From an uncultured bacterium (GTDB lineage: Bacteria; Margulisbacteria; WOR-1; JAKLHX01), in contig CAZHHM010000003.1 in NCBI GenBank assembly GCA_964532225.1, positions 30,005 to 94,004 on the forward strand: 64,000 bases of DNA, read 5' to 3'. The notes below the pieces were generated by a model. The model had not been told where the DNA came from, ran no database searches, and saw only the letters and a list, made by a program, of their open reading frames with translations. Position 1 is the stretch's first letter; each line of letters starts with the position of its first letter. The translations under genes and the position numbers were made by a program. Positions 8,581 through 33,784 of this stretch are shown piece after piece.

Positions 8581-10585
<2,005 letters not shown>

Positions 10586-10617
10586 CTATTGATTGCGGAC
10601 GTACTCAGCCAATTTTC

Positions 10618-10661
10618 ATTCTATCACAAAATATTTTGTGTCAAATGAGTAATGTTATAAT
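10618..10661. promoter_or_regulatory. Divergent promoters: TGaTAGAAT on minus (purA) and TGtTATAAT on plus (ABC transporter), with a perfect 16-bp palindrome between them
   Basis: attcta at 10618-10623; cacaaaatattttgtg at 10625-10640; tgttataat at 10653-10661. Confidence 0.6.
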
Positions 10662-10668
10662 AGGACGC

Positions 10669-12390
10669 ATGAAAGTCTTTCTAAGGCTTTTGTCGTTTAT
10701 AAGGCCCTATAAGTTCGAGGTGTTCCTGGCCTTCATCTGCATGGCGGTATTTTCCGTATGCAACCTCTCGGTCATGCCGCTGGTCAGCAATATCTCCGGG
10801 GCCGTCGGCTCAAAGGATTTTGCCACGCTCAATCTTTTTATAGGAGCAGCGATCGCTCTGTTCCTTGTAAAAGGTATATTCCAGTACGGACAGTCCTATC
10901 TTTCTTCTTTTGTCGGGCAAAGGGTCGTAACGGACATGCGCGTCAAGCTTTTCAAACATCTGCAGGACCTTTCAGTGGAATTTTATTCGCAGTGGAAGAC
11001 CGGCGAGGTCATGTCCAGGGCCATCAACGACATAGCGGTCATTCAGGCGGCCATTGTGGTCACAGCGACCGAGATCATACCTCAGATGCTTACTCTGGCA
11101 GGCGTGCTTGGCTATCTGATCTACCTGAACTGGAGGCTGACCCTGCTTGCTTTGGTCACTGCACCGGTCTTCGTTCTTGCCATCAACAAGTTCGGGCAGG
11201 AAATGAGGGTGATAGGCCGGAACGCTCAGAAAAAGATAGCCGACATCTCCTCGATCCTGCAGGAGACAGTTTCGGGCGCAAGGATAGTCAAGTCCTTCAC
11301 CATGGAGAAACACGAGACCGAAAGGTTCAGGAACGAGAGCGAGACGAGCTTCGGATGGTCTATGAAAGAAGCCCAGATCGACGCGACCCAGAGGCCGCTT
11401 ATGGGCTTTCTGCAAGTGCTTGCCGTAGTGATAGTGATATGGTTCGGGTGTCTTGAGGTGATCCAGGGCCGGCTCCGTCCGCAGGACCTCATCGCTTTCT
11501 TCGCCGGAGCTTTCCTTCTGATAGACCCCGTCATCGTGATCTCAAAGATCAATTCCACGGTACAAAGGTCCCTTGCGTCAGCCGAGAGGGTGTTCGAGAT
11601 CCTTGATATCATACCGACCGTAAAGGACGAGGACGGCGCAAAAGAGCTTCCTTCGGTCAATGGCAATGTATCGTTCAAGGACGTCAGCTTTTCGTACAAA
11701 AAAGGCACGGAGGTCCTTTCAGGCATCAATTTTGACATACAGTCCGGAAAGGTCGCTGCCATAGTTGGTCCGAGCGGCTCCGGCAAAAGCACCCTGATAA
11801 ACCTGATACTCAGGTTCTATGATCCGTCGTCCGGAAAGATAATGATAGACGGCAATGACATTCGAAAAGTGACCCTTCACAGCCTCAGGAAACAGATCGG
11901 CATAGTGCCACAGGACACGATGCTTTTCAGCGGTACAATAAGCGACAACATTAAGTACGGAATGCCCGATGCAAGCACCTCCCAGATAGAATCTGCGGCA
12001 AAAAATGCCAACGCGCACGATTTTATAATGGCGCTGCCCATGGGCTATGAGACCCAGGCCGGAGAAAGAGGGGCAATGCTTTCCGGAGGTCAGCGGCAGA
12101 GGATCGCCATAGCAAGGGCCATACTGAGGGACCCAAAGATACTGATACTTGACGAGGCGACATCCTCCCTTGATACCGAATCAGAAAGGCTGATACAGGA
12201 TGCTCTGCAGAGACTGATATCCGGACGCACGACTTTCGTTATCGCCCACCGCCTCTCCACAGTCCAGAACGCGGACACCATCCTGGTACTGAAGGACGGG
12301 GCTATCGAAGAGCACGGCACTCACAAGGACCTTATCGACAGGAACGGTTTCTACAAAAGACTGTTCGACATGCAGTTCAGGGGGACATGA
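10669..12390 (+). CDS. MsbA/Sav1866-type ABC exporter (TMD fused to NBD)
   Basis: Six-TM domain, Walker A GPSGSGKST, LSGGQRQR signature, ILDEATS. Start moved from 10582 to 10669 (MKVFLRLL), 7 nt after TATAAT. Confidence 0.93.
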   Translation: MKVFLRLLSFIRPYKFEVFLAFICMAVFSVCNLSVMPLVSNISGAVGSKDFATLNLFIGAAIALFLVKGIFQYGQSYLSSFVGQRVVTDMRVKLFKHLQDLSVEFYSQWKTGEVMSRAINDIAVIQAAIVVTATEIIPQMLTLAGVLGYLIYLNWRLTLLALVTAPVFVLAINKFGQEMRVIGRNAQKKIADISSILQETVSGARIVKSFTMEKHETERFRNESETSFGWSMKEAQIDATQRPLMGFLQVLAVVIVIWFGCLEVIQGRLRPQDLIAFFAGAFLLIDPVIVISKINSTVQRSLASAERVFEILDIIPTVKDEDGAKELPSVNGNVSFKDVSFSYKKGTEVLSGINFDIQSGKVAAIVGPSGSGKSTLINLILRFYDPSSGKIMIDGNDIRKVTLHSLRKQIGIVPQDTMLFSGTISDNIKYGMPDASTSQIESAAKNANAHDFIMALPMGYETQAGERGAMLSGGQRQRIAIARAILRDPKILILDEATSSLDTESERLIQDALQRLISGRTTFVIAHRLSTVQNADTILVLKDGAIEEHGTHKDLIDRNGFYKRLFDMQFRGT

Positions 12391-12395
12391 ATTAA

Positions 12396-13478
12396 ATGAA
12401 GGTCCTATTCCTTACGAACGGACACGGTGAAGACCTCATCGCTGCCAGGATAATAAAGGAGCTCGGGCCATCCGCACAGGTCACGGCCATGCCTCTTGTA
12501 GGACTGGGAGAAGCATTCAACGGCCTCAACATCACCGTGATAGGCCCCAGAAAGAAGATGCCTAGCGGAGGTTTTCTTTACCAGAGCCTGGCAAGCACCA
12601 TAAAGGACCTTATGTCAGGGCTCGTCTCCGTGACAGCTCAGCAGATCCGTCTCCTATGGGAACAGAAAGGCGAATTCGACCTTGTAGTAAGCGTCGGGGA
12701 TATAGTTCCTATAGTCGGCGCTCTGTTGACCCGCACAAGGTTCTTCTTCGTTGGCTGTGCCAAGTCCGATCATTATGATTACAGCTACACTCCCTGGGAG
12801 ATATTCCTGCTCAGGAAATACTGCAATAAAGCATTTCCCCGGGACATCAGGACGCATGAAGGAATGCTGAAAGCCGGTATAAGGTCATATTATCTCGGGA
12901 ACCCGATGATGGACGGCATCGATGTCACCGGAAAAAAGATCAGACAGTCGGCGGATTCGGTCCTGGTAGGGATACTTCCGGGAACAAGGGATGACGCACA
13001 GCAGAACATCGAAGATATCATGAAAGTGGCCGAGAAGCTTGTCTCAGCTAAAGAAAAGATCAAGTTCGAGTTCGCAGTTGCCGCCTCCCCTTCACAGGAT
13101 ATCTCCAAGTTCGGGTCATTTCCCGGCATGAGAGTATTCACTGACGCTTTCGGAGATATCATCAGTTCCGCTGACGTCATCATTGGATTATCGGGGACAG
13201 GCAATGAACAGGCGGCAGGGCTAGGCAAACCTGTCATCTCTTTTCCGGGACGCGGGGTACAATACACGAGGCCGTTCGCGAAAAGGCAAAAACAGCTGCT
13301 GGACGGGGCGCTGTTGCTAACTGAACGGGACCCTGACAAGTGCGCTGCAGCGATACTCGAACTTCTCCGCTCAAAGACAAGGATATCCGAAATGGCTGCC
13401 GCAGGCAGGGAAAGGATGGGAGAGCAAGGCGCTAGCACGGCCATTGCTGAAGCCATAACCAATGCGGATAGGCCATAA
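12396..13478 (+). CDS. Lipid-A-disaccharide synthase (LpxB)-related GT-B protein, cyanobacterial type
   Basis: TNGHGED, VGDIVP, AKSD, GNPMMD, LPG.R, GTGNEQAAGLGKPV..PG.G.Q motifs. Confidence 0.8.
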   Translation: MKVLFLTNGHGEDLIAARIIKELGPSAQVTAMPLVGLGEAFNGLNITVIGPRKKMPSGGFLYQSLASTIKDLMSGLVSVTAQQIRLLWEQKGEFDLVVSVGDIVPIVGALLTRTRFFFVGCAKSDHYDYSYTPWEIFLLRKYCNKAFPRDIRTHEGMLKAGIRSYYLGNPMMDGIDVTGKKIRQSADSVLVGILPGTRDDAQQNIEDIMKVAEKLVSAKEKIKFEFAVAASPSQDISKFGSFPGMRVFTDAFGDIISSADVIIGLSGTGNEQAAGLGKPVISFPGRGVQYTRPFAKRQKQLLDGALLLTERDPDKCAAAILELLRSKTRISEMAAAGRERMGEQGASTAIAEAITNADRP

Positions 13479-14568
13479 CTTCATTGAAAGCCTAGATCCC
13501 GTCTATCATGAAGTACTGAAGCATCTTTCCCGGAACGACCACGGTAATATCCACGTATCCTTGTGTTCTGTCGCTAAAAGAAAGAACAGGATAAACGCAG
13601 TGCCCGGATCTACTTTTGACATTTCCGCCGCCGCCCCCAGATCATGGTTGTTCAGCGAGCTTAATCTGCCGTTCGCCGTGACCAATAATGAGATCGATAT
13701 TCTATTCTGCCACGCGCCGGACCTCACCGTGAGGCAGCCGTCCAGGTCCGTGGTCGTACTGCCTGACGTGAACGCGCTTCAGTTCGACGACGAAAAGGTC
13801 CGCGGTCTTGAGAACTCCATCAGGTACAGGACCAGGATGTCATCGGTAAAAAAGGCGAACAGGGTCCTGACATATTCCTCGTCAGAACAAAGCTCCATTT
13901 CCAGGGTCTTAGGCATCAGGCCCGACAGGATAACGGTGGTAGATCCGCCTGCCGGCAAAGCGTTCGCTCCCGTATTCAACGAAAAAAAGATCTCGGCCGT
14001 CACGGAAAGGTACGGAATAAGGTCGGAATACTATATTTACAGCGGCACATATTTTAGACGCAACAATATCCGAGAGCTTTTGGACATCTTCATGGGCTTT
14101 TCGGCCTTGAACAGCAGCTCCTCCCTTGTTCTTGCAGGAAAGGTCCCTGTAAACGTCGCGGAACAGATAAAAACGGCAGACAACCGCGGGAAGATAATTA
14201 TGGCCGGTGAAGTCCCGGATCAGGACCTCGCGATGCTCTATAACGGAGCCCTCGCATTTCTTTCTACATCATCCTACGAAAGCTATTGTTTTGATGCCCA
14301 GAGGGCCATGGCCTGCGGCACTCCTACTATTGCGTATGCCACGTCCTGCTTTCCCGAGGTCATGAAGAACTGCTCCGTACTCATCAGGGACAAGGACAAA
14401 AAAGCCTTTATCAAGGCCATGAAGGACTCAAAAGAGAACCAGAACATGAGGATATCGTGCAGGGCCCTTGGCGTCAGCCTGGCAAAAAAACACTCTGTCG
14501 AAGCCCTTGGCGAACAGATATCCTCTGTGTTCAGGGAGATCTCCGAGGAGAGCGTTCCCGATGCTTGA
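13462..14568 (+). CDS. GT4-family glycosyltransferase-like protein with a degenerate catalytic motif
   Basis: GT-B C-terminal domain: YIYSGT..RNNI, LAMLYNGA..F, YESYCFDAQRAMACGTP. Confidence 0.75.
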   Translation: MRIGHNFIESLDPVYHEVLKHLSRNDHGNIHVSLCSVAKRKNRINAVPGSTFDISAAAPRSWLFSELNLPFAVTNNEIDILFCHAPDLTVRQPSRSVVVLPDVNALQFDDEKVRGLENSIRYRTRMSSVKKANRVLTYSSSEQSSISRVLGIRPDRITVVDPPAGKAFAPVFNEKKISAVTERYGIRSEYYIYSGTYFRRNNIRELLDIFMGFSALNSSSSLVLAGKVPVNVAEQIKTADNRGKIIMAGEVPDQDLAMLYNGALAFLSTSSYESYCFDAQRAMACGTPTIAYATSCFPEVMKNCSVLIRDKDKKAFIKAMKDSKENQNMRISCRALGVSLAKKHSVEALGEQISSVFREISEESVPDA

Positions 14569-15607
14569 CAAGACACTGCGTGTGGCTATTGAGGCATCAT
14601 GCCTGAAAGAGCCGGACTCCGGTTGCGCTTCATTTGCAAGGGAGCTCATCCGAGGACTGCTGGAGACCGATAAAAAGACACGCTTCTCGCTCCAGTATTC
14701 CGAAATGCCGCTGTTCTCTCCGGAAGCATTCAGGGGAAAACAGCACAATCTGAGGAGCCATCGCTACTTCGACCTTACCCGTACGACATACGACATCTAT
14801 CACTGGACGGGGAACTGCATCCCGAGGCCTATACAATATGAACGGCTTGTCGCTACACCGGGGGACCTTGCCTCCATTAGCGGTCCCTATCTCGAGATCA
14901 TGAAAAAGGCAGATAGGATAGTTCTTCCATGGGAAAGCATGCTGGGTCCGGCGCTGTCAACGTTCGGCGGAGAAGGCAGCAGGATTTCCGTGGTCAATCC
15001 GGGCATCGACCCATCATTCTCTAAAAGACCGAAAGCTGAAACGGACCTTATCAAGACCAGATACGCGATCAAAAGACCTTATATACTTGTTCCGGGTCCG
15101 GTATCCGACAGGTCCAACCTGCACAAGATCATTGAAGCATACTCAAAGCTCATCTATCTCTCCCCTCCCGATATGGTGGTCACGGGGAAGATAAGAGAAG
15201 GACATGAATACCTGAGATCACATATCAGGGAGCTTGAGCTGGAAAGCCATATTAAACTTTTGGGAAGGCTGCCGAAAAAGGTGATGCCTGCCCTGTATAG
15301 CGGAGCTGAGATTGTCGTCTCCGCCGGTACTTCTTTCGGGTTCTGCATGTCATTGCTCGAAGCCATGGCCTGCGGCTCCCCTCTCGTTGTATCCAGGTCA
15401 ATACACACAAAAGAGGTCTGCTCGGATGCAGCTGCATATGCGGAAAGCAACAGCGCTGACAGCATAGCGGACACAATAAAAGATGTCCTTACAAAGGACA
15501 GCCGCAGGACGGCACTGTCCGCAGCAGGATCGACAAGAGCAAGATCGTTCTCCTCCAGGGCCTCCGCAAAGGCTACAATGGAAGTATACAGAAAGGCCAT
15601 GAAATGA
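14561..15607 (+). CDS. GT4-family glycosyltransferase-like protein with a degenerate catalytic motif
   Basis: PGIDPSF, ALYSGA, SFGFCMSLLEAMACGSP. Start reassigned to ATG 14561 (MLDKTLRVAIEA), which overlaps the upstream stop. Confidence 0.78.
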   Translation: MLDKTLRVAIEASCLKEPDSGCASFARELIRGLLETDKKTRFSLQYSEMPLFSPEAFRGKQHNLRSHRYFDLTRTTYDIYHWTGNCIPRPIQYERLVATPGDLASISGPYLEIMKKADRIVLPWESMLGPALSTFGGEGSRISVVNPGIDPSFSKRPKAETDLIKTRYAIKRPYILVPGPVSDRSNLHKIIEAYSKLIYLSPPDMVVTGKIREGHEYLRSHIRELELESHIKLLGRLPKKVMPALYSGAEIVVSAGTSFGFCMSLLEAMACGSPLVVSRSIHTKEVCSDAAAYAESNSADSIADTIKDVLTKDSRRTALSAAGSTRARSFSSRASAKATMEVYRKAMK

Positions 15608-16755
15608 AAATACTGATCCTTGCAAGGATGTCCACGTTTTTTTCCGGAAGAACAGTAAGCGAAAGGCCTCTAGGCGGGAGCGAATCCGCCCTTTTCTATC
15701 TTACAAGGGAGCTGGCAAAGCTTGGTCATGAGGTCGTCATATACAACAACTGTCTCAAGGAGGCAGGGACCTACGAAGGTGTAGTATACAGGCAGTTCAC
15801 GACGCTCGCTGACCTAGTAAGGCACAGTAAAGAGGTCGACTATGATGTTTTCGTCTCTTTCAGGGACCTTCCTGCTTTCCTGTTCCCGATAAAGGCACGG
15901 AAAAGGGTCTGGTGGGGCCACGACGATTTTTCGAACGTCTGGAACCATAAGGGCGTCATGAAATTCATCGGGCATGAATTCCTGAGAGTAGCCGGATCCC
16001 TTGTGAACAGGACCTGTGACAGGCTTTTCGTCGTCAGCAAATGGCTGAGCGACATCTGTGTCGAAAAGCTTGGAATAGACAATAAAAGGATGTATGTGAC
16101 AAAGAACGGGATACACCTTCCATATTTCGACGGCGAGGAAAAGCGCGATCCGTACCGCATGGTATATATCAGCGTACCGGCAAGAGGGCTTGATGTCCTT
16201 CTGGACATATTCCCGCAGATAAGACAAAGTGTGCCGCAAGCGACCCTGCATGTTTATTGCGGTTTCGACCTGGGCGTACTTAAAGAAAAGGACAGGATAA
16301 AAGCACAAAACATATTCGACAAGACAAAACAGGATGGTGTCGTGCTTGAGGGAACGAGGAAACACTCCGAACTTGCAAGAGAGCTGATGAGGTCCGGCCT
16401 GTTCCTCTATCCCAGCCATGAAGTACCGGAAGCCGCGTTCTTCGCGGAAACGTCCTGCATCGCAGCGCTCGAAGCGCAAGCCGCAGGATGCCCGGTCATC
16501 GCGTCAAAAAGAGGAGCGCTGCCCGAAAGCATAAAGGACGGAGAGACCGGGATACTGGTCGCCGGGGACCCCGTGTCGGAACAGTTCAAGCAAAAGTTCA
16601 TCGAAGAGACGGTCACACTGCTTAAGGACAGGCAGAGGCATGAAACCATGAGCGCTGCCGCCAAAAGGTATGCCTCAACTGTGTATCCGTGGGAGCTCAT
16701 CGCCCTGGAGTGGACCAACGAATTCACGTCCATGCTGGAGCAGGGTCCTAAATGA
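15604..16755 (+). CDS. GT4-family glycosyltransferase
   Basis: LGGSESA, intact EX7E (ETSCIAALEAQAAG), GALPE, YPWELIA. Confidence 0.88.
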   Translation: MKILILARMSTFFSGRTVSERPLGGSESALFYLTRELAKLGHEVVIYNNCLKEAGTYEGVVYRQFTTLADLVRHSKEVDYDVFVSFRDLPAFLFPIKARKRVWWGHDDFSNVWNHKGVMKFIGHEFLRVAGSLVNRTCDRLFVVSKWLSDICVEKLGIDNKRMYVTKNGIHLPYFDGEEKRDPYRMVYISVPARGLDVLLDIFPQIRQSVPQATLHVYCGFDLGVLKEKDRIKAQNIFDKTKQDGVVLEGTRKHSELARELMRSGLFLYPSHEVPEAAFFAETSCIAALEAQAAGCPVIASKRGALPESIKDGETGILVAGDPVSEQFKQKFIEETVTLLKDRQRHETMSAAAKRYASTVYPWELIALEWTNEFTSMLEQGPK

Positions 16756-17678
16756 AAGAGAACATCCTTATAGCGGGCCTGGGAGGCTGCGTCGGGCATT
16801 ATCTTTACGACATACTTGCTGACGACCCTTCATATGAGATATTTGCTTTCGTCAGGAACCCCCAGAAGCTGTTGTTCGACCCTAATAAAGCAAAGAACAT
16901 CCATTTTATCCGCGATGACATCCTGAACATCGCAAAATACCCGGACATCGCTCGAAGCACTGACCATTTGATAAACCTGACGGCGGACTGGGGCTCTGAA
17001 AAAGGCAATCTCGCATATAACGTGAACCTGTTCGAAGCAATGGACCTGAACAGGTGCAAAAAGGTCTTTTATTTCTCTACGGCAAGCATCCTGGGCGAAG
17101 CCAATTTGCCGTCCCATGAAGTGGAATCCGTAGGGACCCCGTATATACGCGGGAAATACCTGATGCACAAAAAGTTGAAGGAGATGAAGATAGCCGACAG
17201 GACTACTGTACTATTCCCCACCTGGGTCCTGGGAGGTGACGAAAAGCATCCGTACTCGCATGCTTATTCGGCGATGAAAGGCGCAAGCAAATGGATGTGG
17301 CTGCTCAGGTTCTTTAAGCTGGACCTTAAGTTCCATTTCATCCATGCAATGGATATTGCCGCTATCACGGTCCATCTTTTAAAGAGCGGCCCTTCCCGGG
17401 GAGAGCTGGTCCTGGGCAATCCCGCTATCACCGCGGATGAACTGTTGGAGGCTGTCTGCAGGAAATTGGGCGTAAAAAGAAGACCGGTCCTGAGCATCGG
17501 AGAGACCGCACTTTCAACGCTGTCCAACGTACTTAACAAAAGGCTTTCCCCGTGGGACAAATATTCTATCCAAAAGAGGAACCAGACGTTCGATACTGTG
17601 AATGCAGGCACCTACGGGCTCCCCTCAAAGTTCGACACTATAGGCAAGATAATGGATGACCTGTTCGGAGGTCAGTGA
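16752..17678 (+). CDS. NAD-dependent epimerase/dehydratase (extended SDR)
   Basis: GLGGCVG Rossmann motif, FSTASIL, YxxxK (YIRGK), FHFIHA.DIA. Confidence 0.8.
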   Translation: MKENILIAGLGGCVGHYLYDILADDPSYEIFAFVRNPQKLLFDPNKAKNIHFIRDDILNIAKYPDIARSTDHLINLTADWGSEKGNLAYNVNLFEAMDLNRCKKVFYFSTASILGEANLPSHEVESVGTPYIRGKYLMHKKLKEMKIADRTTVLFPTWVLGGDEKHPYSHAYSAMKGASKWMWLLRFFKLDLKFHFIHAMDIAAITVHLLKSGPSRGELVLGNPAITADELLEAVCRKLGVKRRPVLSIGETALSTLSNVLNKRLSPWDKYSIQKRNQTFDTVNAGTYGLPSKFDTIGKIMDDLFGGQ

Positions 17679-18502
17679 TCCCCCTGAGGCACCAGATTTA
17701 TCTTCGGTGAAGTGATGAGGTCCGTTCTCTTACCTTTTATGGCGACTATCGTGGCCCTGTCCTTAGGTTTGTTCGGTTCAGCAGGGATATTGCACTCATA
17801 GACCGAGGTGAACCCGATGTCCTTGAGAAGGTTTATCAGCGACCTCTTTGTGAACCAGAAGCTGCGGTCATTATCTACCGAAGCCCAGAGGTTCTTGAGC
17901 TTTGCCTCAACGCTGGTCCCGGCGCGATGCTCCCGGTAGTATTTCCCGAAATACTGCTTTCCCGCGTGCCTTATCCTTTTCCAGGGGAAAAGCGAGATAT
18001 TGGTGTCCACTACCAGAACGTCGGTGCAGAGAGCGGCTATGTTCTCGAGGAACTTGAAGATATCGGGCACATCAATATGGTAAAGGATACCGAGACAAAG
18101 GACTGCATCGAAAGATCCGTATTTTTTGGCCGTGACGTTGCGAACATCGTCCTGGACGAACTCGAGCTTTTCAAGGCCCAGGACCTCTTTCGCGAACCTG
18201 GCCTTTTCCACGCTCTGCTGCCTGAACTCGACCCCTGTCGCGGCAGCTCCCTGAAGCGCGAATTCCGTGGCATACAGTCCCTCAAGGCAAGCAAGATCAA
18301 GGACCTTCATTTCGGCCAAGGGCTTTCTTGCGGTGTCAGACACTATCTGGAACACCCTTCTGAGCTTTTCCGCGTCCCCCATGCCGTCGTCGGCGTTCTC
18401 AATGGTGTATATACCCCCGCCGAGATGTATGTTGTGCGCCGACCATTTGCCGTATCGCTCGATCACACCTTTTTTCTTTTCGAGGATCTCATCAGGTCTC
18501 AT
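17672..18502 (-). CDS. Class I SAM-dependent methyltransferase
   Basis: VLDLACLEG motif I, FDAVLCLGILYH. Start reassigned to 18502 (MRPDEI), an ATGA-type overlap with the upstream gene. Confidence 0.88.
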   Translation of the reverse strand: MRPDEILEKKKGVIERYGKWSAHNIHLGGGIYTIENADDGMGDAEKLRRVFQIVSDTARKPLAEMKVLDLACLEGLYATEFALQGAAATGVEFRQQSVEKARFAKEVLGLEKLEFVQDDVRNVTAKKYGSFDAVLCLGILYHIDVPDIFKFLENIAALCTDVLVVDTNISLFPWKRIRHAGKQYFGKYYREHRAGTSVEAKLKNLWASVDNDRSFWFTKRSLINLLKDIGFTSVYECNIPAEPNKPKDRATIVAIKGKRTDLITSPKINLVPQGDH

Positions 18503-20142
18503 TGCATTTTCTCCTGTACCAGAAATTTTGAACGTTCCGAACATGAGACGCATGAACTCTTTCCGCAGAGGAAGATGCCCTGATGGCTCTTTAGGATGTT
18601 CGCGGCAATATCATGCACCTTTTTAGCTATGGCCAGCTTACATTCCGCATCCCCTATCCTGACCGAAGAAGCAATATCGCTCCTTTCCAGTACAGGACCG
18701 AGCCTTTCGAACTTTATGCTGTGGCCTGTAGTGTGCAAACGCGCCTTGACCGGACCCGATCCGTCATTGTAGCAGTATTCTTTAGTGTGCTGCGCATACG
18801 GGACGCCTGCCGAATACTCGGAAGCGTGAAGCAGGGAGACCGTAGAAAGCCCGGTCCCGAGCATCAGGATATAACCGTTACCCGTAAGGACCTCTGCCAA
18901 GGGACCATCCGCCGAGAGGCTGTCTGACATCCTGTACCGCTTTGCAAGGGCGTCCGAATCTTTTCCCCAGAACGTGAAGCTGAGCTGAGGGTGGAAATTC
19001 CTGTGAACGTTCCCGCTTTTTCTGAACTCCTCTGCGATCCTGCCGATATCCTTTGAGACAGGAGTATCCGGCCTGAAACATCTTTTATCAGACAGAGCCC
19101 CTGACGCCTCTGTCCCGTATGTGAACGCCGGCATCATTATAAGGCCCTGCTCCGTTACGGCCTCTTTCAGCGCTTCGACCACGGTCCTGGCGCCTCCATC
19201 CACTCTGCCGAAAGCGTTGAGGGATGAATGGACCACGATCCTCATCCCTTTCTTTACGCCGAGAGCGTAAAGACCCTTGATGATGTCCTGCTTGCAGACC
19301 TTTGCCGACCTGCCGAACAGCCTCTTAAGCTTCTTAACTATCTTGCTCTCTCTTGGCCTTTTTTCGTATATATCAAGGTATGAAGCATTGTATTCAAGGC
19401 ATATCCCGGCCTTGAACGAATTTGAGGGGTCCGCGAGGTCGTTCGACCTGATGAACTCCAGGCATTTTTCCCTTATCCTGATCCTGAACTTCTTTTCGTC
19501 CTCAGGTTTTGCATTGGTATGTGTCCAGTTCTTTTTATGTATCCGGTAAACGTAGACCTCTTTGTCGATGAAGACACAGGGAGCTTCCATTGCAAGCCTT
19601 AGTCTCAGCTCATAATCCTCGGCCCAGTCAAGAGAGGTGTCATACCCTCCTATCCTGTCAAAGATATCCTTGCGGATAAGACAGCTCCCGTCCGGGATGA
19701 AGTTGCCCTTGAACAGCTTATAGGCATCGAACTGCCCTCCGTAATACCTGACTGAGTTGTTATAGGTCCAGACGACCTTTACTTTACCGTAGACAACACC
19801 TGCATCAGGCCTGCGCGAGGCAACAGCCTCCAGCGTCTTTAGCCTGTCCGGCAAAGCAATATCGTCGCTGTCCGAGAAGCACAGATAGGCCCCTTTTGCC
19901 TGGGACGCCAGATACTGATAGACGATGCTTGGGTTCCCGGAATTCTTCTCTCTCGCGAAGACCTTGACCCTCGGGTCCATCTTTTCATATTCTCTCAGTA
20001 TCGCAAGGCTGCCGTCCTTTGACCTGTCGTCGCAGCAAAGGAGCTCAAGGTCCCTGTATTCTTCCTGCAGCACGGCATCAACGGCTTCTCTGAGGAACTT
20101 TTCGCTGTTGTATACGGGCATTAGGACGGATATCTTTGGAAT
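18499..20142 (-). CDS. Fusion of an N-terminal GT2 glycosyltransferase and a C-terminal AAC(3)/Antibiotic_NAT-family N-acetyltransferase
   Basis: GT2: PVYN, DDRSKDGS, DSDD, EDYEL. AAC(3): LGVKKGMRIVVHSSL, G.IMMPAFT, HPQLSF, MLGTG..S.LHASE. Probable ATT start at 20142 behind GGAGG; first ATG is at 20121. Confidence 0.85.
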   Translation of the reverse strand: MPKISVLMPVYNSEKFLREAVDAVLQEEYRDLELLCCDDRSKDGSLAILREYEKMDPRVKVFAREKNSGNPSIVYQYLASQAKGAYLCFSDSDDIALPDRLKTLEAVASRRPDAGVVYGKVKVVWTYNNSVRYYGGQFDAYKLFKGNFIPDGSCLIRKDIFDRIGGYDTSLDWAEDYELRLRLAMEAPCVFIDKEVYVYRIHKKNWTHTNAKPEDEKKFRIRIREKCLEFIRSNDLADPSNSFKAGICLEYNASYLDIYEKRPRESKIVKKLKRLFGRSAKVCKQDIIKGLYALGVKKGMRIVVHSSLNAFGRVDGGARTVVEALKEAVTEQGLIMMPAFTYGTEASGALSDKRCFRPDTPVSKDIGRIAEEFRKSGNVHRNFHPQLSFTFWGKDSDALAKRYRMSDSLSADGPLAEVLTGNGYILMLGTGLSTVSLLHASEYSAGVPYAQHTKEYCYNDGSGPVKARLHTTGHSIKFERLGPVLERSDIASSVRIGDAECKLAIAKKVHDIAANILKSHQGIFLCGKSSCVSCSERSKFLVQEKMQ

Positions 20143-20198
20143 GACTTGTACCTCCGTATCAGATTATATCATCGACAGGACAAGGTTATAATGTAGCC

Positions 20199-21032
20199 AT
20201 GGATATAGGACCGGTCATAGGGATCATGCTGATCAGGAACGAGAACGACATCCTGCGGGAGGTGCTTTCGGAGCATGTAAAGTTCTGTGACCATATATAT
20301 GTCCTTGACGGCACTACCGAAGATCCCGGGACATCAAAGAGCATCTGCACTTCGTTCCCGAAAGTCAGCCACTTCACCGAAGACGAGCTGCCGTCCGTTT
20401 ACCCGATACCCATCAGGGACGGATGCAGACAATTCCTTATAGATAAAGCTAGAGAGAAGTTCGGGGAGAAAGGATGGTTCGTGCTTCTGCACGGTGACGA
20501 GATATTCGTGGACAGGCCGGATGACATCATAAGGAAATACCGCGGTCTGTTCGATATGCTTACTCTGGATAACGTACTTTTCTTCGTGCATAAGGAACAG
20601 GAGCCGTTCAAGCTTGACCCTTTAAAAAAGGTACAGGATCAGATCCGCTGGCATGCCGGCCCGGGCTCTCCCGAGCTGAGGATACTCAGGAACAAGCCCG
20701 GCACCAGATATGACATAAGGCAGCACCACGACCTGGCGCCAAAAGGTATGGGGATGAACTACAAAACGACTTACAAGATCAAGCATTATCCTTACAGGGA
20801 CCCCGAACAGCAGCAGAAAAGAGCAGCTGACAGGACCGAAGTAACGAATTGGTCCCCCTCGGGCTATTCACACATACCCGACAGGAAGTACTATCTGGAC
20901 GAGTCGTTCTTTGGTAGAAAATTCCTTTACTGGATATCCAAACGCCCGTTAACCCCCAGGATAAGCACACCGCTGGTCACAAGGTTCCTGCAGGACGTTG
21001 CCGAGAACTTCACAAGAGGTCGTATCAGATAG
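20199..21032 (+). CDS. GT2-superfamily glycosyltransferase
   Basis: IRNENDIL..L, HIYVLDG.T.D, WFVLLHGDE, IKHYPYR; TATAAT 6 nt upstream of the ATG. Confidence 0.75.
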   Translation: MDIGPVIGIMLIRNENDILREVLSEHVKFCDHIYVLDGTTEDPGTSKSICTSFPKVSHFTEDELPSVYPIPIRDGCRQFLIDKAREKFGEKGWFVLLHGDEIFVDRPDDIIRKYRGLFDMLTLDNVLFFVHKEQEPFKLDPLKKVQDQIRWHAGPGSPELRILRNKPGTRYDIRQHHDLAPKGMGMNYKTTYKIKHYPYRDPEQQQKRAADRTEVTNWSPSGYSHIPDRKYYLDESFFGRKFLYWISKRPLTPRISTPLVTRFLQDVAENFTRGRIR

Positions 21033-21375: not shown

Positions 21376-21400
21376 GCAAACCTGCTGTATAATTGTGGCT

Positions 21401-22327
21401 ATGGTACTGATGAGCGTCGTCATCCCTACATTGAACAGGGCCAAAGTGCTTTCAAGGGTGCTTGAAGCCCTGTGCCAGCAGACAATGCAGCACAACGAGT
21501 ACGAGATCGTCGTAGTGGATGACGGGTCTACGGACGGCACAAAAGCCGGAGTCGAGGAGGTCGCTAAGAGAGAGAGCGGCAGGCACACGATCAAGTATGT
21601 AAAGCAGGACCCCTCGAAAAAAGGGCCGGCTTCAGCCAACAATCTGGGCATCAGGAACGCTTCCGGCAGATACATTCTGTTCATGAACGATGATGTTATC
21701 GCCGACAAGGAATTGCTGAGAGAGCATGCCAGGTCTCACTCGCTCCACTCAAGAGTGATCGTTCAGGGAAGGGTGATCAACACCTCAAGCCTCGATGAGC
21801 TCGGCAAAAAGCACAACGGCTACGCAGGCGGTTACAGCGACATGTCGTTCGGATATTTCACAACATGGAATTGTTCCGTCGAAAAGGCCCTACTCGAGCA
21901 GGCAGGGATGTTCGACGAGGACTTCAGGGAACTTTGCTGGGAAGACGTCGAATTCGGCTACAGGCTTCGCAGGCTCGGAGTGAAGCAGATATACAACAAA
22001 GCCGCTTTCGGCTATCACTTCAGGCACGAGTTCAAGGTGGACAATATCGGGTGGGTAAAGCACAAGTCCGTCAACATGGGGCGTAACGCCGTGCTCTATT
22101 ACCGCAAACACCCCACTCTTGATGTAAAGATCTCGACGGAATCTTTCTGGCTACCTATGACGATGCACAGTTTCATGTCATTCGGGGTAAGGATGGTCGG
22201 AGGCCCGGCCTTGACCGGACTCTTCAAATGGCTGGAGAAGAGGGGCATGGCAAGGACGCTCTCCTTCCTGGTGGGTCTTGCTGGCAAATACTGGTACTAC
22301 TCAGGAGTAAAGGACGCCATGAAATGA
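21401..22327 (+). CDS. GT2 glycosyltransferase
   Basis: SVVIPTLNR, VVDDGSTDGT, FMNDD, WEDVEFGYRL; TATAAT 7 nt upstream of ATG 21401. Confidence 0.9.
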   Translation: MVLMSVVIPTLNRAKVLSRVLEALCQQTMQHNEYEIVVVDDGSTDGTKAGVEEVAKRESGRHTIKYVKQDPSKKGPASANNLGIRNASGRYILFMNDDVIADKELLREHARSHSLHSRVIVQGRVINTSSLDELGKKHNGYAGGYSDMSFGYFTTWNCSVEKALLEQAGMFDEDFRELCWEDVEFGYRLRRLGVKQIYNKAAFGYHFRHEFKVDNIGWVKHKSVNMGRNAVLYYRKHPTLDVKISTESFWLPMTMHSFMSFGVRMVGGPALTGLFKWLEKRGMARTLSFLVGLAGKYWYYSGVKDAMK

Positions 22328-23211
22328 AGATGTCTGCTGTAATAGTAAGCTGGAACGTAAAGGACCTTTTGAAGAAATGCATCCTTTCAGTACTGGACAA
22401 CACCGAACACGTCAAGGACATGGAGATCATTGTGGTGGACAACGCATCGGCTGACGGTTCTGCCGACATGGTCGCTTCCACCTTCCCTTCCGTCAAGCTA
22501 ATAAGGAACCTGGACAACGTCGGCTTTTCAAGAGCCAACAATCAGGGCATAGAGGCCTCTTCGGGAGAGTATGTGCTGCTTTTGAACCCTGATACCGAGG
22601 TCAGGCTGGGAGCCGTAGACAAGCTATGCTCTTATCTTGACCGCAATACCGATACTGCAGGTGTCGCGCCGAAGCTCCTTAATGCCGACGGTTCGCTTCA
22701 GAGGTCCATACTAGGGTTCCCAACTCTTGGAGCAATGGCTGCCAGGCAGCTTTTTGTCGAATATCTTTGGCCTGACAACCCCTGGAGCAAGGCATACAAT
22801 CTTCCGGACCATGATTACGGGGCTGTTTCGGATGTGGACCAGCCCATGGGCGCCTGCATACTGTTCAGGAGGTCCGCTCTTGAAGAGGCCCACGGTTTTG
22901 ACGCTGCAAGCTTCATGTTCTTTGATGAGGTGGACCTTTGCTTCAGGATAAAGAAAGCCGGATGGAAGATCAGGTATATCCCCGATGCCGAGGTGGTCCA
23001 TTACGGGGGCTCCTCTGTTAAAAAATGGGGAGCGTTCAATCTAAGCAGGCATTGGACCAGGAGCAGGAACCTGTTCTTCAGGAAGCATTACGGGGCTATG
23101 CAGCTTGCGGCCTTGTATCTGGCGGACGCATTAAGGGCGGTCATCATCATCGCTTTGTTGATCGTGCTTATCGCTTCGATACCGTTCTTTATCGAGATGC
23201 TTTCTTTCTGA
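22324..23211 (+). CDS. GT2 glycosyltransferase (WbbL/RfbF rhamnosyltransferase-like)
   Basis: VIVSWN, VDNASADGS, N.GFSRANN, LLNPD, FDEVDLCFR. Start moved to 22324 (ATGA overlap). Confidence 0.88.
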   Translation: MKMSAVIVSWNVKDLLKKCILSVLDNTEHVKDMEIIVVDNASADGSADMVASTFPSVKLIRNLDNVGFSRANNQGIEASSGEYVLLLNPDTEVRLGAVDKLCSYLDRNTDTAGVAPKLLNADGSLQRSILGFPTLGAMAARQLFVEYLWPDNPWSKAYNLPDHDYGAVSDVDQPMGACILFRRSALEEAHGFDAASFMFFDEVDLCFRIKKAGWKIRYIPDAEVVHYGGSSVKKWGAFNLSRHWTRSRNLFFRKHYGAMQLAALYLADALRAVIIIALLIVLIASIPFFIEMLSF

Positions 23212-28858: not shown

Positions 28859-30397
28859 TTATCGGCTTCTCAGAATGTCGAGGTTATCCTTTGCCCTTAA
28901 GAACCCTGGATTGACCGATAGTGTCCTTTCCCAGAACATCTCGGCATCCTTGATCCTCCCCTGCTTGTATGACACGTACCCGAGATTATAGATTGCGGCA
29001 TCGAACCTGTCGTTTATGTCGACGGCATCCCTGAAATATTCTTCCGCAGTCCTGTGATCGTTCATGTTCATGTAAACAACGCCCAGATTGTATTTTGTAA
29101 CGGCATCGTATGGGTTAAGGTCCTCGCTTATCCTGAAATGCTTTTCCGCGTTCGGGATATCCATGGTCCCATAGAACACTTTGCCCATCCCTCTGTGAGA
29201 AAGATAATATCCGGGAGAATCGTGGACCGCTTTTTCCCAGAACACGCGCGGGCTCGAATAGGAATAGCTGTTGCTCATGGAGAGAACGGAGAACAACGCT
29301 ACAACAGCCGACAGCAACAGCGGCCTTTTCCCGGCGAGACGGACAGCAGGAGATAAAGTGCTTAGCAAGATCAATACGCCTATCAGCGGAAGATAAAGCC
29401 TTTGTTCCGCATAATATTGCACCTGCCCCGATAACGGATTTGCCATTGACGGAATCAGGAAGATAAGCCACCACATCAAGCCGAACACGGCGGTTCGTCC
29501 ATCCTTTATCCATCCTGCAGCGAACGAAGCGGCAAGAACGCATATAAGAGCGATCCCTGACAGGAATACCAAAGGATCATGCAAAGGGAATACCGTAAGC
29601 TTTAACGGCAGGAGCGACTTTCCCGCGTAGGCGACAAGTCCGGGAAGGTCATTTATCATATTCGACATGACTACGGCAGGGTCATAAGGCATTGGATACC
29701 TGAGCGAAAAGCCTCTTAATGCTGCATAGACCGTTATCATCGCGGCAAGTGACACGAGGGCAGCGAATGTCCTTGAGGAGGTTTTATTATCGCGGCCGGA
29801 CGTCCAGGGATAAAAGAGCAGTACTGCGGGAAGAAGGACAGCGGTCTCTTTGGTCAGCAGGGCTACAAGGAAAGCCAGCGAGCCTGCGGCCAGGTATCTT
29901 TTTGCTCCGCCCGTGACATATTTGGGGATGAGAATAACAGCAGCGACTACTGCGGCCGCAAGGAGGATATCGTTCCTTCCGGGTATCCAGGCGACCGCCC
30001 GTGATAATGCCGGGTGTACAGAGAAAAGCAGCGAAAGCCAGAAGGAAAGCTCCTTATCCGCCGTGAACGAAATAAGAAAGAAAAAGACCAGAATTACCGT
30101 AGCTATATGGAGGATCAGGTTGGTCGCATGATAACCTGACGGGTTCCCGTTGAAGGCAAGATTGTCCAGGCCCATCGACACCGAAAAGACCGGCCTGTAG
30201 AACTCATTATGGTAGGCCAGTCCGAACACATCGCTCAAGAAGACCTCTTTGAAGCTCTCTATCCCGTGCATCCTTATTGGTCTTTCAACTGCAAAATACC
30301 GGTCATCCAGGTCCGTGAACCCGAAGAACAGCGTCGGGAAGAATACGAACAAAGGGACCAGGACAAGTACTGCAAGCTTTCCCTTGATATAACTCAT
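28859..30397 (-). CDS. TMTC-like GT-C membrane glycosyltransferase with C-terminal TPRs (paralogue 3)
   Basis: FTDLDD, YRPV, YHATNLILH, HP..AVAWIPGRND, KET, EQRLYLP, TPR repeats. Confidence 0.85.
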   Translation of the reverse strand: MSYIKGKLAVLVLVPLFVFFPTLFFGFTDLDDRYFAVERPIRMHGIESFKEVFLSDVFGLAYHNEFYRPVFSVSMGLDNLAFNGNPSGYHATNLILHIATVILVFFFLISFTADKELSFWLSLLFSVHPALSRAVAWIPGRNDILLAAAVVAAVILIPKYVTGGAKRYLAAGSLAFLVALLTKETAVLLPAVLLFYPWTSGRDNKTSSRTFAALVSLAAMITVYAALRGFSLRYPMPYDPAVVMSNMINDLPGLVAYAGKSLLPLKLTVFPLHDPLVFLSGIALICVLAASFAAGWIKDGRTAVFGLMWWLIFLIPSMANPLSGQVQYYAEQRLYLPLIGVLILLSTLSPAVRLAGKRPLLLSAVVALFSVLSMSNSYSYSSPRVFWEKAVHDSPGYYLSHRGMGKVFYGTMDIPNAEKHFRISEDLNPYDAVTKYNLGVVYMNMNDHRTAEEYFRDAVDINDRFDAAIYNLGYVSYKQGRIKDAEMFWERTLSVNPGFLRAKDNLDILRSR

Positions 30398-32211
30398 TGC
30401 ACCACCTCCACTCCCATCTCTCTCAATTTGGAAAGATAAGCCTCAGCTTTATCGGCGCTTTCATTTTTGTAACTGCTGTAGAGCTTTGAGATCGCCTGTA
30501 TGTTCTCGGGATCAGACTTGAGGACAAGCGTCCAATTCTCCCTCGCAGATCTGACATCCCCTCTTCTTTCATAGATAGACCCCAGGTTCAATCGGGCACT
30601 GATGTTGCCCTGATCACTGCCTAGAATGCGAGAATACATCTTCTCGGCCGACAGATCGTCCCCCGACCTTGCATACGCGGATGCAAGCAGGTTCATGGTC
30701 ATCAGCTCGCCCGGGGACAACGACAGCTCCTCTTTGAAAAGGAGGATCGATTCGGGATATCTGCCCATGTTCATCAGAACAACGGCCAGGTTCCTCCGGA
30801 CCTCAGTTAAATGAGGGTGCAGGCGGATCTCCTCCCTTAAAGCATACTCGGCGCTTTTCAGGTCGCCCCGGGACACATAAAGTACGGCAAGGTTATTTCT
30901 GACGTTTGTTTCTGACGGGGAAAGCTCCAGGCTTTTCAGGTAGTGTCTTTCGGCTGAGACACGGTCTCCGTTCGCCGCAAGCTCCTCAGCGTACAGAGCA
31001 TGGGCCCTGGAATAGCTCGATGAATTCACGACAGCGTTGCCCGAGAACATCTCCGGCGAGGAAAAGTTCAAGGAATAGGCTGCCGTGCCTACAGCAAGCA
31101 CCAGGATCAGTACGGGCAGCAGCTTCCTGCCTGCATGAAAGGATATATTATACCTTAGCTGTGATAATGTCAGGAATAACCCGACCATCGGAAGATAGAG
31201 TCGATGGTCCAACAAATCCGCAACGTAACCAGGATACGGCCTGACGAATGAAGGCAGAAGAAAGGCCACGAACCAGACCAGCCCGAACATGGCGCCTGAA
31301 GTGTTCTTGTTCTTTGCCAGCCATATTAACGACACGAGCAGGGACAATGATACAGCCCCGAATATAACGGACGTATCTGCCATTACCGGCATAACTGACA
31401 GGTTTAGCGGAAACAAGGCCTTGCCGAGATATACCAGAAAAGCAGACCATGAACCTGCTAGGCTTGACGCTACCCCCTGCATCGAATATTCAACGGGATT
31501 ACTGAAGGCAAGCATTCTCATGACGCTCCAGATGAACGCAAGAAATGCCCAGAACATGGACAAAATGACATATTGATAACGCTGGAACCTTTTATCAAAA
31601 GACAGAGGATACAGTATGCTGACGATATAAAGCATGAAGGACGATTCTTTCGAGAACACTGCAAGCACGCTCATTATCGCATAACAAAAAAGATGCGCCG
31701 GCTTTCCGGTTTCGCAATATCTCATGAAGCACATGAAGGCAGCTATTACAAAGACTGCCATCAAAACATCGTTCCTTCCGGGTATCCAGGCGACCGCCTG
31801 CGTAAGTGACGGATGCACAAGGAATATCATCGCCATGACAAAAGACATCTCTTTCGACCCGAACCTCCTGAGCAATGCGAACAGGAGAAGCGAAGCTATT
31901 ATATGAAGCATTATGTTCGTGAAATGATACGGCCATGCAGAGACCCCGCCCCAAAAACTGTCAAGCATCAGAGAGACCAGCATGAGCGGTCTGTAATATG
32001 CCTGTTGAGTATCGTTGAACACATCAGACCGGAAAAAGCCGGTAATATTCGTTATGTCGTTGATATACCTGAAGTTCTGCACGATCAGTATATTGTCATC
32101 GCTGTTGGTAAAAGAAAATGAGAGCGTCGCCCCGTACAAGGCCGCTCCCGTGACTATTATCACCAAAGGCAGGAGCAACTGTTTTTTTTCGGATAGCCAT
32201 TTATAGATCAT
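30394..32211 (-). CDS. TMTC-like GT-C membrane glycosyltransferase with C-terminal TPRs (paralogue 2)
   Basis: FTNSDD, YRPL, YHFTNIMLH, HP..AVAWIPGRND, KES, DHRLYLP, longer TPR tail. Confidence 0.85.
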   Translation of the reverse strand: MIYKWLSEKKQLLLPLVIIVTGAALYGATLSFSFTNSDDNILIVQNFRYINDITNITGFFRSDVFNDTQQAYYRPLMLVSLMLDSFWGGVSAWPYHFTNIMLHIIASLLLFALLRRFGSKEMSFVMAMIFLVHPSLTQAVAWIPGRNDVLMAVFVIAAFMCFMRYCETGKPAHLFCYAIMSVLAVFSKESSFMLYIVSILYPLSFDKRFQRYQYVILSMFWAFLAFIWSVMRMLAFSNPVEYSMQGVASSLAGSWSAFLVYLGKALFPLNLSVMPVMADTSVIFGAVSLSLLVSLIWLAKNKNTSGAMFGLVWFVAFLLPSFVRPYPGYVADLLDHRLYLPMVGLFLTLSQLRYNISFHAGRKLLPVLILVLAVGTAAYSLNFSSPEMFSGNAVVNSSSYSRAHALYAEELAANGDRVSAERHYLKSLELSPSETNVRNNLAVLYVSRGDLKSAEYALREEIRLHPHLTEVRRNLAVVLMNMGRYPESILLFKEELSLSPGELMTMNLLASAYARSGDDLSAEKMYSRILGSDQGNISARLNLGSIYERRGDVRSARENWTLVLKSDPENIQAISKLYSSYKNESADKAEAYLSKLREMGVEVVQ

Positions 32212-33779: not shown

Positions 33780-33784
33780 GCCGG

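Follow-up and report, generated by a model that had tools for sequence, protein, structure and literature searches.

Two described enzymes bear most closely on the gene examined here, which lies at 18499-20142 on the minus strand of a 64,000-nucleotide stretch of DNA from an uncultured bacterium (contig CAZHHM010000003.1; the whole stretch is hereafter called the window) and encodes, on a single chain, a family 2 glycosyltransferase (GT2) followed by an N-acetyltransferase (NAT) of the AAC(3) fold. One is the AAC(3)-fold enzyme FrbF, which acetylates a nucleotide-borne amine, CMP-5'-3-aminopropylphosphonate. The other is PglB, whose acetyltransferase is a left-handed beta-helix (PglD-like) and whose transferase is a phosphoglycosyltransferase. 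In Neisseria, PglB carries an amino-sugar acetyltransferase and, on the same chain, the transferase that takes up the acetylated sugar (PMC11130364). FrbF and two further members of its fold, BA2930 and YokD, are reported to be without aminoglycoside activity, and aminoglycoside-binding AAC(3) enzymes have a negatively charged cleft; in the motif TxΦHΦAE, the glutamate heightens the basicity of the histidine, which deprotonates the substrate amine (PMC8956665).

We hold with high confidence that the window gene encodes a real bifunctional enzyme of the envelope glycan. Its GT2-AAC(3) fusion is a real, rare two-domain enzyme architecture, laid out as follows:

18499-20142, minus strand: fusion gene, 547 codons plus TGA, encoding GT2, a helical linker and an AAC(3)-fold N-acetyltransferase (translation, Pfam, homologues, AlphaFold2 (AF2) model)
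19528-20130, minus strand: GT2 (GT-A) catalytic domain, about amino acids (aa) 5-205 (Pfam, alignment A1, PDB sequence match)
19294-19527, minus strand: basic helical linker, about aa 206-283 (AF2 helices 213-233, 239-259 and 267-276)
18502-19293, minus strand: AAC(3)-fold (Antibiotic_NAT) N-acetyltransferase domain, aa 284-547 (PF02522, PDB matches, Foldseek)
18817-18828, minus strand: catalytic His439 to Glu442, within S-L-L-H-A-S-E (BA2930 alignment, invariance in A1)

Direct translation of the minus-strand frame bore out the single uninterrupted open reading frame (ORF) that an initial annotation of this DNA had claimed for 18499-20142. The frame runs unbroken from 20142 to the TGA at 18499-18501, and upstream it meets no stop before a TAA at 20164-20166. 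The mechanically generated ORF list instead begins the gene at ATG 20121 (540 aa), a product for which an exact look-up returned no recorded gene. The same annotation had read GT2 and AAC(3)-family domains on one chain from their motifs, and a Pfam scan agreed, with both families far above their cutoffs. PF00535 matched aa 5-164 (2.2e-28, 99.7 bits against a cutoff of 23.3), with PF10111 and PF13641 also above cutoff and extending to about aa 205, while PF02522 matched aa 304-517 (2.3e-45, 155.4 bits against a cutoff of 25) over profile positions 2-231 of 232, such that the C-terminal half does hit the AAC(3) model. All of the motifs quoted at that stage (PVYN, DDRSKDGS, DSDD, EDYEL, VHSSL, MMPAFT, HPQLSF, LHASE and the terminal CGKSSCVSC) were found, and they occupy invariant or nearly invariant columns in a 17-sequence alignment of the fusion family (A1).

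In the N-terminal half, the GT2 signature residues D38-D39, D91/D93/D94 (DSDD) and E175-D176 (EDY) are present and invariant in A1. The closest solved sequence is the GT-A domain of the E. coli K4 chondroitin synthase (1.5e-19), and by sequence this half most resembles soluble GT-A enzymes, namely the K4 chondroitin synthase domain, GalT1 and SpsA. Sequence analysis detected no transmembrane segment in the fusion protein, of which the AF2 model reached a predicted local distance difference test score (pLDDT) of 84 and a predicted TM-score (pTM) of 0.81. The linker has an isoelectric point (pI) of 9.7. In the homologues P0014-P0016, it carries an insertion of about 80 aa with hydrophobic stretches (A1 columns ~300-380; Kyte-Doolittle 19-residue maximum up to 1.75), a possible membrane anchor that is absent from the window protein.

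Pfam, A1, PDB and Foldseek agree that the C-terminal half is a genuine AAC(3)-fold domain whose His/Glu dyad is intact, which matches the initial family assignment. Its PDB sequence matches are BA2930 (1e-29), YokD, FrbF and AAC(3)-III/IV/VI, and the corresponding part of the AF2 model superposes on solved members of the fold (BA2930, FrbF, YokD and AAC(3)-IVa; Foldseek E 6e-20 to 1e-15, target-normalised TM 0.74-0.90). His439 aligns with His183 of BA2930, the catalytic residue that was altered in PDB entries 3KZL and 3N0S. Both H439 and E442 are invariant in the 17 A1 sequences, as are H305 (VHSS), the M, P and F of MPAFT, and HPxxSFxFWG; the threonine of TxΦHΦAE is a serine in the window protein and in those homologues whose motif was read in A1. 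The half has a pI of 9.15, which is compatible with an anionic substrate.

The same architecture recurs in a small family. We found the fusion in 17 clusters at 90% identity among 5.8 billion clusters, and in about six clusters at 50% identity among 1.84 billion representatives (P0001, P0009, P0013, P0017, P0121 and P0123). The 16 clusters other than that of the window protein, from JGI, ENA, NCBI and Logan assemblies, all show a continuous GT2-linker-NAT chain with a conserved linker, at 38-46% identity to the window protein. Since the catalytic residues of both halves have stayed invariant at this level of divergence, selection appears to act on both activities. A scan of 185,579 GTDB species representatives with two peptide patterns yielded, as a lower bound, three full-length fusions and one truncated by a contig end; the carriers are one Thermodesulfovibrionia, two Nitrospiraceae and one Nitrospira metagenome-assembled genome (MAG), and all named members of the fusion family belong to Nitrospirota. 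Within the wider set of homologues, the 517-aa metagenomic protein P0018 keeps the GT2 half and linker (36% identity) and has a decayed NAT half, with LLYGDL in place of VHSSL and no PF02522 match.

The names given to the fusion in databases are automatic (for example 'aminoglycoside N3'-acetyltransferase/glycosyltransferase involved in cell wall biosynthesis' and 'glycosyltransferase [Nitrospira sp.]'), and a full-text literature search found no published description of a GT2-AAC(3) fusion. The novelty suggested by the initial annotation is thus that of an undescribed architecture, not of an unseen one: the 17 clusters already stood in public databases, and no paper describing them was found. 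Nor is the architecture common and characterised, the family being small and carrying automatic names only. The accompanying view that the AAC(3) fold is mainly a stand-alone domain did not hold, as the nearest 150 representatives include PF02522 fusions to an M28 peptidase, a xylose-isomerase-like triose-phosphate isomerase (TIM) barrel and a flavin adenine dinucleotide (FAD) oxidoreductase. The fusion is not a new kind of system: each of its domains is known, as is the chemistry, and glycan clusters commonly contain domain fusions.

The sequence itself is consistent between independent sources. The stretch is present in four DNA runs from one wastewater-metagenome study, and a Logan contig from a second run (X2) spans 17827-20123, including the domain junction, with one single-nucleotide polymorphism. 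The start region (20100-20300) is identical in contigs of three runs. Between-run variants within the fusion (19370, 19466 and 18961) amount to two missense changes in the linker, I258T and K226R, and one silent change at K394, with no frameshift or stop.

We infer that translation of the fusion most likely initiates at a rare ATT codon, on the basis of the following elements:

20140-20142, minus strand: probable ATT start codon (homologue N-terminus alignment, Shine-Dalgarno spacing)
20151-20155, minus strand: GGAGG Shine-Dalgarno sequence, 8 nt upstream of the ATT (read from the sequence)

The N-terminus of the homologues, MPvVSVLMPVYN, aligns in A1 with the window's IPKISVLMPVYN, encoded ATT-CCA-AAG, such that the ATT falls on the homologues' Met1. 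No ATG, GTG or TTG occurs between the in-frame stop at 20164-20166 and ATG 20121, which encodes Met8, an almost invariant residue inside the motif SVLMPVYN, and which is preceded by no Shine-Dalgarno motif like GGAGG. Initiation at Met8 would cost the GT-A fold its strand beta-1 (residues 4-10 of the AF2 model), and the complete strand is present in the product only when translation starts at ATT 20142. A consensus scan for promoters and terminators found nothing on the minus strand near the fusion, the number of sites being no higher than in shuffled sequence. An extended -10-like TGATATAAT at 20160-20170 (minus strand), about 20 nt upstream of the ATT, is a candidate element by sequence only; it lies inside the 56-bp gap common to the fusion and the divergent gene at 20199, and since the scan needs a -35 element, it went unreported there.

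A further feature links the NAT half to a particular branch of its family:

18541-18567, minus strand: C526-x4-C531-x2-C534 knuckle, with His474 (18721-18723) a probable zinc site

The three knuckle cysteines are invariant or nearly so both in the fusion family (A1) and in stand-alone relatives (a 13-sequence alignment, A2). The fusion family ends in FLC-x4-5-C-x2-C and its nearest stand-alone relatives end alike, most of them with a Cys (GCS) at the position of His474 (TGHS). A CxnCxxC knuckle was carried by 85 of the 150 nearest PF02522 representatives at 50% identity, and in 41 of these 85 a G[C/H]SxxF lies 49-55 aa upstream (30 with Cys, 11 with His). A position that switches between Cys and His while keeping its distance from three invariant cysteines suggests that the Cys/His-Cys3 knuckle is a probable structural zinc site, which in the window protein (Cys3-His) probably stabilises the C-terminus. 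C501 was considered as a ligand and rejected, as it is unconserved outside the fusion family. No PDB match aligns past residue 232 of the 267-aa NAT query, and the knuckle is uncovered by solved structures; BA2930, YokD and FrbF have neither a C-terminal CxnCxxC nor a Cys/His at position 474.

The genes around the fusion place it in an envelope setting, in which an MsbA-type exporter of lipid A and lipopolysaccharide (LPS) is the first gene:

10582-12390, plus strand: MsbA-type lipid A/LPS exporter, first gene of the cluster (TIGR02203, 558 bits, below the cutoff of 602)
12396-13478, plus strand: lipid-A-disaccharide synthase-related protein (TIGR03492, 330.9 bits, above the cutoff of 219.2)
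13462-14568, 14468-15607 and 15604-16755, plus strand: three GT4 glycosyltransferases (Pfam)
16752-17678, plus strand: NAD-dependent epimerase/dehydratase (Pfam)
17672-18502, minus strand: class I S-adenosylmethionine (SAM)-dependent methyltransferase, 276 aa (Pfam Methyltransf_25/23/31/11/12), its start overlapping the fusion stop (ATGA)
20199-21032, plus strand, divergent from the fusion: weak GT2-like ORF (Pfam)
21395-22327 and 22228-23211, plus strand, likewise divergent: two GT2 genes (Pfam; among these three divergent genes, NCBIfam EpsD-like/MftF-like matches below cutoffs)

The three plus-strand GT2-type genes are followed by lgt, and the GT4 and GT2 neighbours given by Pfam and NCBIfam confirm the glycosyltransferase cluster that had been proposed. 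In the Nitrospirota loci, the order is GT2, Wzy_C, GT2, (UDP-GlcNAc 2-epimerase), GT2, fusion, Glyco_transf_9, PMT_2, with a UDP-sugar dehydrogenase nearby and, in L004, LptE. In L007, an MsbA-like ABC gene that is 38% identical to the MsbA-type gene of the window lies upstream of the fusion cluster. Two fused loci are without LPS markers: L005 carries additional GT2 genes together with a radical-SAM gene, and glycan genes are entirely absent from L006. Taken together, msbA and the lpxB-related gene in the window and Wzy_C, Glyco_transf_9, MsbA and LptE in the relatives point to an LPS-core or outer-glycan setting, as opposed to one of antibiotic or secondary metabolism.

Several features of the arrangement stand beside this picture. 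The methyltransferase and the fusion form an inverted two-gene block in an otherwise plus-strand cluster, with no shift in GC content there, and the plus-strand epimerase and minus-strand methyltransferase converge on each other, with a 7-nt overlap that takes in both stop codons (17672-17678). As mechanically listed, glycosyltransferase ORFs overlap by about 100 nt (14468 against 14568; 22228 against 22327), and the true starts of the downstream members probably lie further in. On the minus strand, 28859-33902 holds three tandem paralogues (512, 605 and 564 aa) with C-terminal tetratricopeptide (TPR) repeats, of which the middle one matches PMT_2 (ArnT/PMT-type glycosyltransferase), a family that also flanks the fusion in Nitrospirota loci. 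A 255-aa protein at 48595-49362 (plus strand) carries a Por_Secre_tail domain, the C-terminal sorting domain of the type IX secretion system (T9SS), a domain characteristic of the FCB group, whereas the named carriers of the fusion are all Nitrospirota. At 90% identity, the window's ribosomal protein L2, SecY and AdoHcyase each form a singleton cluster, and RpoA falls in a two-member cluster.

The initial annotation had joined the methyltransferase to the fusion in a transfer-acetylate-methylate module. The overlap on which this rested is there: the ATGA can be read directly, Pfam agrees on a class I methyltransferase at 17672-18502, and independent gene callers also give a 276-aa product from the ATG overlapping the fusion stop, such that the methyltransferase is probably translationally coupled to the fusion. 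Its family is very large, with 888 homologues at about 50-56% identity in many phyla; among solved proteins, the window methyltransferase is closest to EvdMO1 and WbdD, both sugar O-methyltransferases, and all three of the homologue neighbourhoods examined (3/3) were surface-glycan clusters, in two of which the gene directly precedes an ordinary GT2. A glycan-methyltransferase role is therefore plausible here. The module is not conserved, however: tblastn with the window methyltransferase found no homologue in any of 10 fusion-bearing loci (L001-L010), and none was present among the called neighbour genes of the fused loci examined, which makes the pairing a local arrangement of this genome. 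Here, and in this genome only, the coupled methyltransferase would probably O-methylate the same glycan.

With regard to the substrate, the most informative flanks are those of stand-alone relatives of the NAT half. In L089 (2838-9243), which holds the best such relative with flanks, a stand-alone NAT with the knuckle (32% identity) sits in the order 4,6-dehydratase-type, epimerase, DegT, NAT, Wzx-like flippase, GT2, pyruvyl transferase, and its start overlaps the stop of DegT; L095 (3-4493) holds DegT, a stand-alone knuckle-type NAT, a GFO/IDH/MocA oxidoreductase and a methyltransferase. Elsewhere, the slot after DegT is filled by beta-helix or GNAT N-acetyltransferases of nucleoside diphosphate (NDP)-amino sugars. 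The K-antigen locus of P. gingivalis, too, has a stand-alone gene annotated as 'aminoglycoside 3-N-acetyltransferase' (PMC8003790).

On balance, we lean towards a cytoplasmic bifunctional envelope-glycan enzyme that N-acetylates an amino sugar and transfers it, with the LPS core or outer region as the most probable site; the amino sugar as acetylation substrate is held with moderate confidence. Of the surface-glycan amino-sugar decoration put forward in the initial annotation, the glycan role thus remains the best reading of the cluster context, and methylation as a conserved step falls away. The product would be a soluble or membrane-peripheral cytoplasmic enzyme of envelope-glycan assembly. 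From family knowledge, its GT-A domain would bind an NDP-sugar donor, with a metal at DSDD and E175/D176 as base, and would extend a lipid-linked or lipid A-core acceptor by one residue. The NAT domain, following the AAC(3)/FrbF mechanism, would use acetyl-CoA, with the Glu442-activated His439 deprotonating an amine, most likely on an amino sugar, that then attacks the thioester. Because of the DegT-NAT operons and the action of FrbF on a nucleotide-linked amine, we favour, with low confidence, an order in which the NDP-amino-sugar donor is acetylated and then transferred; acetylation of the newly transferred residue after transfer would be equally compatible with the data.

A number of observations weigh against this assignment. 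The L089 and L095 operons are homologous (their DegT proteins are 54% identical) and thus count as one observation. In a metagenome scan for stand-alone NAT relatives, about 50 loci of at least 4 kb were assessed for neighbours, and sugar-nucleotide genes occurred only at L089, L095, L116 (DegT 5 kb away) and L139 (an adjacent dehydratase); in most of these loci the stand-alone relatives, knuckle-bearing ones among them, have unrelated neighbours, such as GH123/PfkB, enoyl-CoA hydratase/alcohol dehydrogenase (ADH) or protein kinase genes. Neither the 64-kb window nor the regions flanking 10 fused loci contained a homologue of an aminotransferase, sugar dehydratase or deacetylase, and homologues of DegT, GFO/IDH/MocA (WbpB-like) and 4,6-dehydratase were likewise absent from the window and from 11 fusion loci (of which L087 duplicates the contig of L009). 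The sugar specificity of the GT2 half is unreadable from its sequence, every NCBIfam equivalog match being far below cutoff, and neither the PF02522 knuckle subclade nor the fusion family is known to have an assayed member. The non-canonical ATT start is also compatible with a truncated GT2 half in this organism. Finally, metatranscriptome contigs (run X5) map only to 17624-17957 and none covers the fusion gene; the mapped interval corresponds to the 3' ends of the methyltransferase and the convergent epimerase.

The absence of amino-sugar pathway genes near any fused locus also speaks for an alternative that we regard as unlikely, if still the most serious of the rivals, namely that the NAT half modifies a non-sugar amine attached to the glycan or envelope, for example a substituent such as an amino acid, ethanolamine or a polyamine, or else glucosamine that is de-N-acetylated or part of lipid A. 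In that case the GT2 half would work on this polymer in its own right, and joining the halves would do no more than co-localise them. Such a role would fit a family whose members occur in many contexts and fusions, including those to the M28 peptidase, TIM barrel and FAD oxidoreductase, and which accepts amines as diverse as the aminophosphonate of FrbF and aminoglycosides (the latter documented in PMC8956665). Yet DegT sugar aminotransferases precede the closest stand-alone relatives whose flanks are informative, and the persistence of a covalent link to a glycosyltransferase at 38-46% identity suggests that the two activities follow one another on a single sugar. A smaller probability, in the range of the improbable, attaches to the idea that one half is inactive here, either because translation from Met8 truncates the GT2 or because the NAT is a structural or acetyl-CoA-sensing module only. 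The ATT at the homologous start position can be read in this way, and the NAT decay in P0018 demonstrates that loss of one activity occurs in the family; set against this, GGAGG stands 8 nt before the ATT and none before Met8, all catalytic residues of both halves are intact, and the variants between runs introduce no frameshift or stop.

Natural-product pathways do contain tailoring by a glycosyltransferase plus an acetyltransferase, the PF02522 name points the same way, and the weak matches to AAC(3) models reflect real homology, such that an enzyme glycosylating and acetylating an aminoglycoside-like compound or another secondary metabolite, for tailoring or resistance, has to be considered; we judge it very improbable. 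The NAT half falls far below every NCBIfam AAC(3) resistance model (AAC_3, 95.9 against 270 bits; AAC_3_IV, 95.3 against 420; and, among AAC_3_II, AAC_3_VIII and AAC_3_VIa, 69.7 against 480, 70.6 against 560 and 49.4 against 675), on which account a role in aminoglycoside resistance was rejected, and its nearest solved relatives have no aminoglycoside activity. The domain is basic, whereas aminoglycoside-binding AAC(3) enzymes have a negatively charged cleft. No biosynthetic-cluster genes lie nearby, and the context of msbA, an lpxB-related gene and GT4/GT2 genes here, with GT9, Wzy_C and MsbA in relatives, leaves the glycosylated and acetylated small molecule that had initially been offered as an alternative without support. 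Least credible of all, to the point of being negligible, is an assembly or annotation artefact in which a sequencing error joined two adjacent genes. Nothing beyond the low coverage of the source runs (~7x word depth) speaks for it; the X2 contig, from an independent run, crosses the whole junction, on which ground the chimera that the initial annotation had allowed for was rejected, and 16 other clusters share the architecture and the conserved linker.

A broader proposal, tentative and in our estimate somewhat doubtful, is that the zinc-knuckle PF02522 subclade constitutes a third structural class of sugar N-acetyltransferase beside the left-handed beta-helix and GNAT enzymes, that the fusion hands its acetylated NDP-sugar directly to the GT site, as a one-chain enzyme that activates and installs an N-acetylated amino sugar of the LPS core, and that many metagenomic 'aminoglycoside 3-N-acetyltransferase' calls are glycan enzymes instead of resistance genes. 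Should the glycan reading be right, the AAC(3) fold, so far familiar almost exclusively from antibiotic resistance, would go back to a housekeeping role in making envelope glycans, and a new fold would join the sugar N-acetyltransferase toolbox. Automatic 'aminoglycoside N3-acetyltransferase' labels would then inflate resistome counts in environmental and wastewater metagenomes, and a score below the NCBIfam cutoff combined with the Cys/His-Cys3 knuckle and a glycan context could serve as a flag for non-resistance members. The fusion would, moreover, offer a handle on the LPS core chemistry of Nitrospirota-type bacteria. The points of note are the probable glycan role of a large zinc-knuckle branch of PF02522, its bearing on resistome annotation and the probable ATT start.

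Compared with known systems, the NAT half stands nearest to BA2930 (Bacillus anthracis), YokD (B. subtilis) and FrbF (Streptomyces rubellomurinus), which are its best PDB matches (1e-29 to 1e-23) and match its fold with a target-normalised TM of 0.77-0.81. It has in common with them the acetyl-CoA-binding VHSS region and the catalytic His/Glu, whereas they are stand-alone proteins of about 265-286 aa with only ~27-28% identity and no link to a glycosyltransferase. By virtue of its CMP-linked substrate, FrbF may be taken as the nearest chemical analogue of NDP-amino-sugar acetylation. With AAC(3)-II, -III, -IV, -VI and -VIII, the NAT half shares its Pfam family, fold and TxΦHΦAE motif; unlike these resistance enzymes, the fusion has a GT2 partner, a basic domain where they have an acidic cleft, an LPS-type cluster and no resistance context. 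For the N-terminal half, the best NCBIfam and PDB similarities are generic soluble GT2 enzymes (EpsE, TuaG, PglI, WcaA, the K4 chondroitin synthase GT-A domain and SpsA), which likewise carry PF00535 with the DD, DxD and ED motifs; unlike the fusion, they have no AAC(3)-fold domain, and their specificity is not transferable at scores so far below the equivalog cutoffs. The stand-alone knuckle PF02522 proteins of polysaccharide loci (L089 and L095, for example) are 30-37% identical to the NAT half and share with the fusion family the FLCxnCxxC terminus, the Cys/His at position 474 and the surface-glycan setting. They differ in having no glycosyltransferase fusion and are uncharacterised, and their wider subclade is found mostly in unrelated contexts.

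For the mechanism proposed here, PglB, which acts in diNAcBac synthesis, is the best functional analogy, as in both cases one chain would combine an N-acetyltransferase with a transferase, which in PglB moves the sugar onto a lipid carrier (PMC11130364). The likeness is one of analogy only: the fusion has an AAC(3) fold and a GT2, with no Hexapep or Bac_transf match in Pfam, and PglB adjoins the genes for its dehydratase and aminotransferase, whereas none flank the fusion. Placed among these systems, the fusion is a rare, uncharacterised architecture that combines two catalytic modules, each well understood, within a gene cluster of an ordinary kind.

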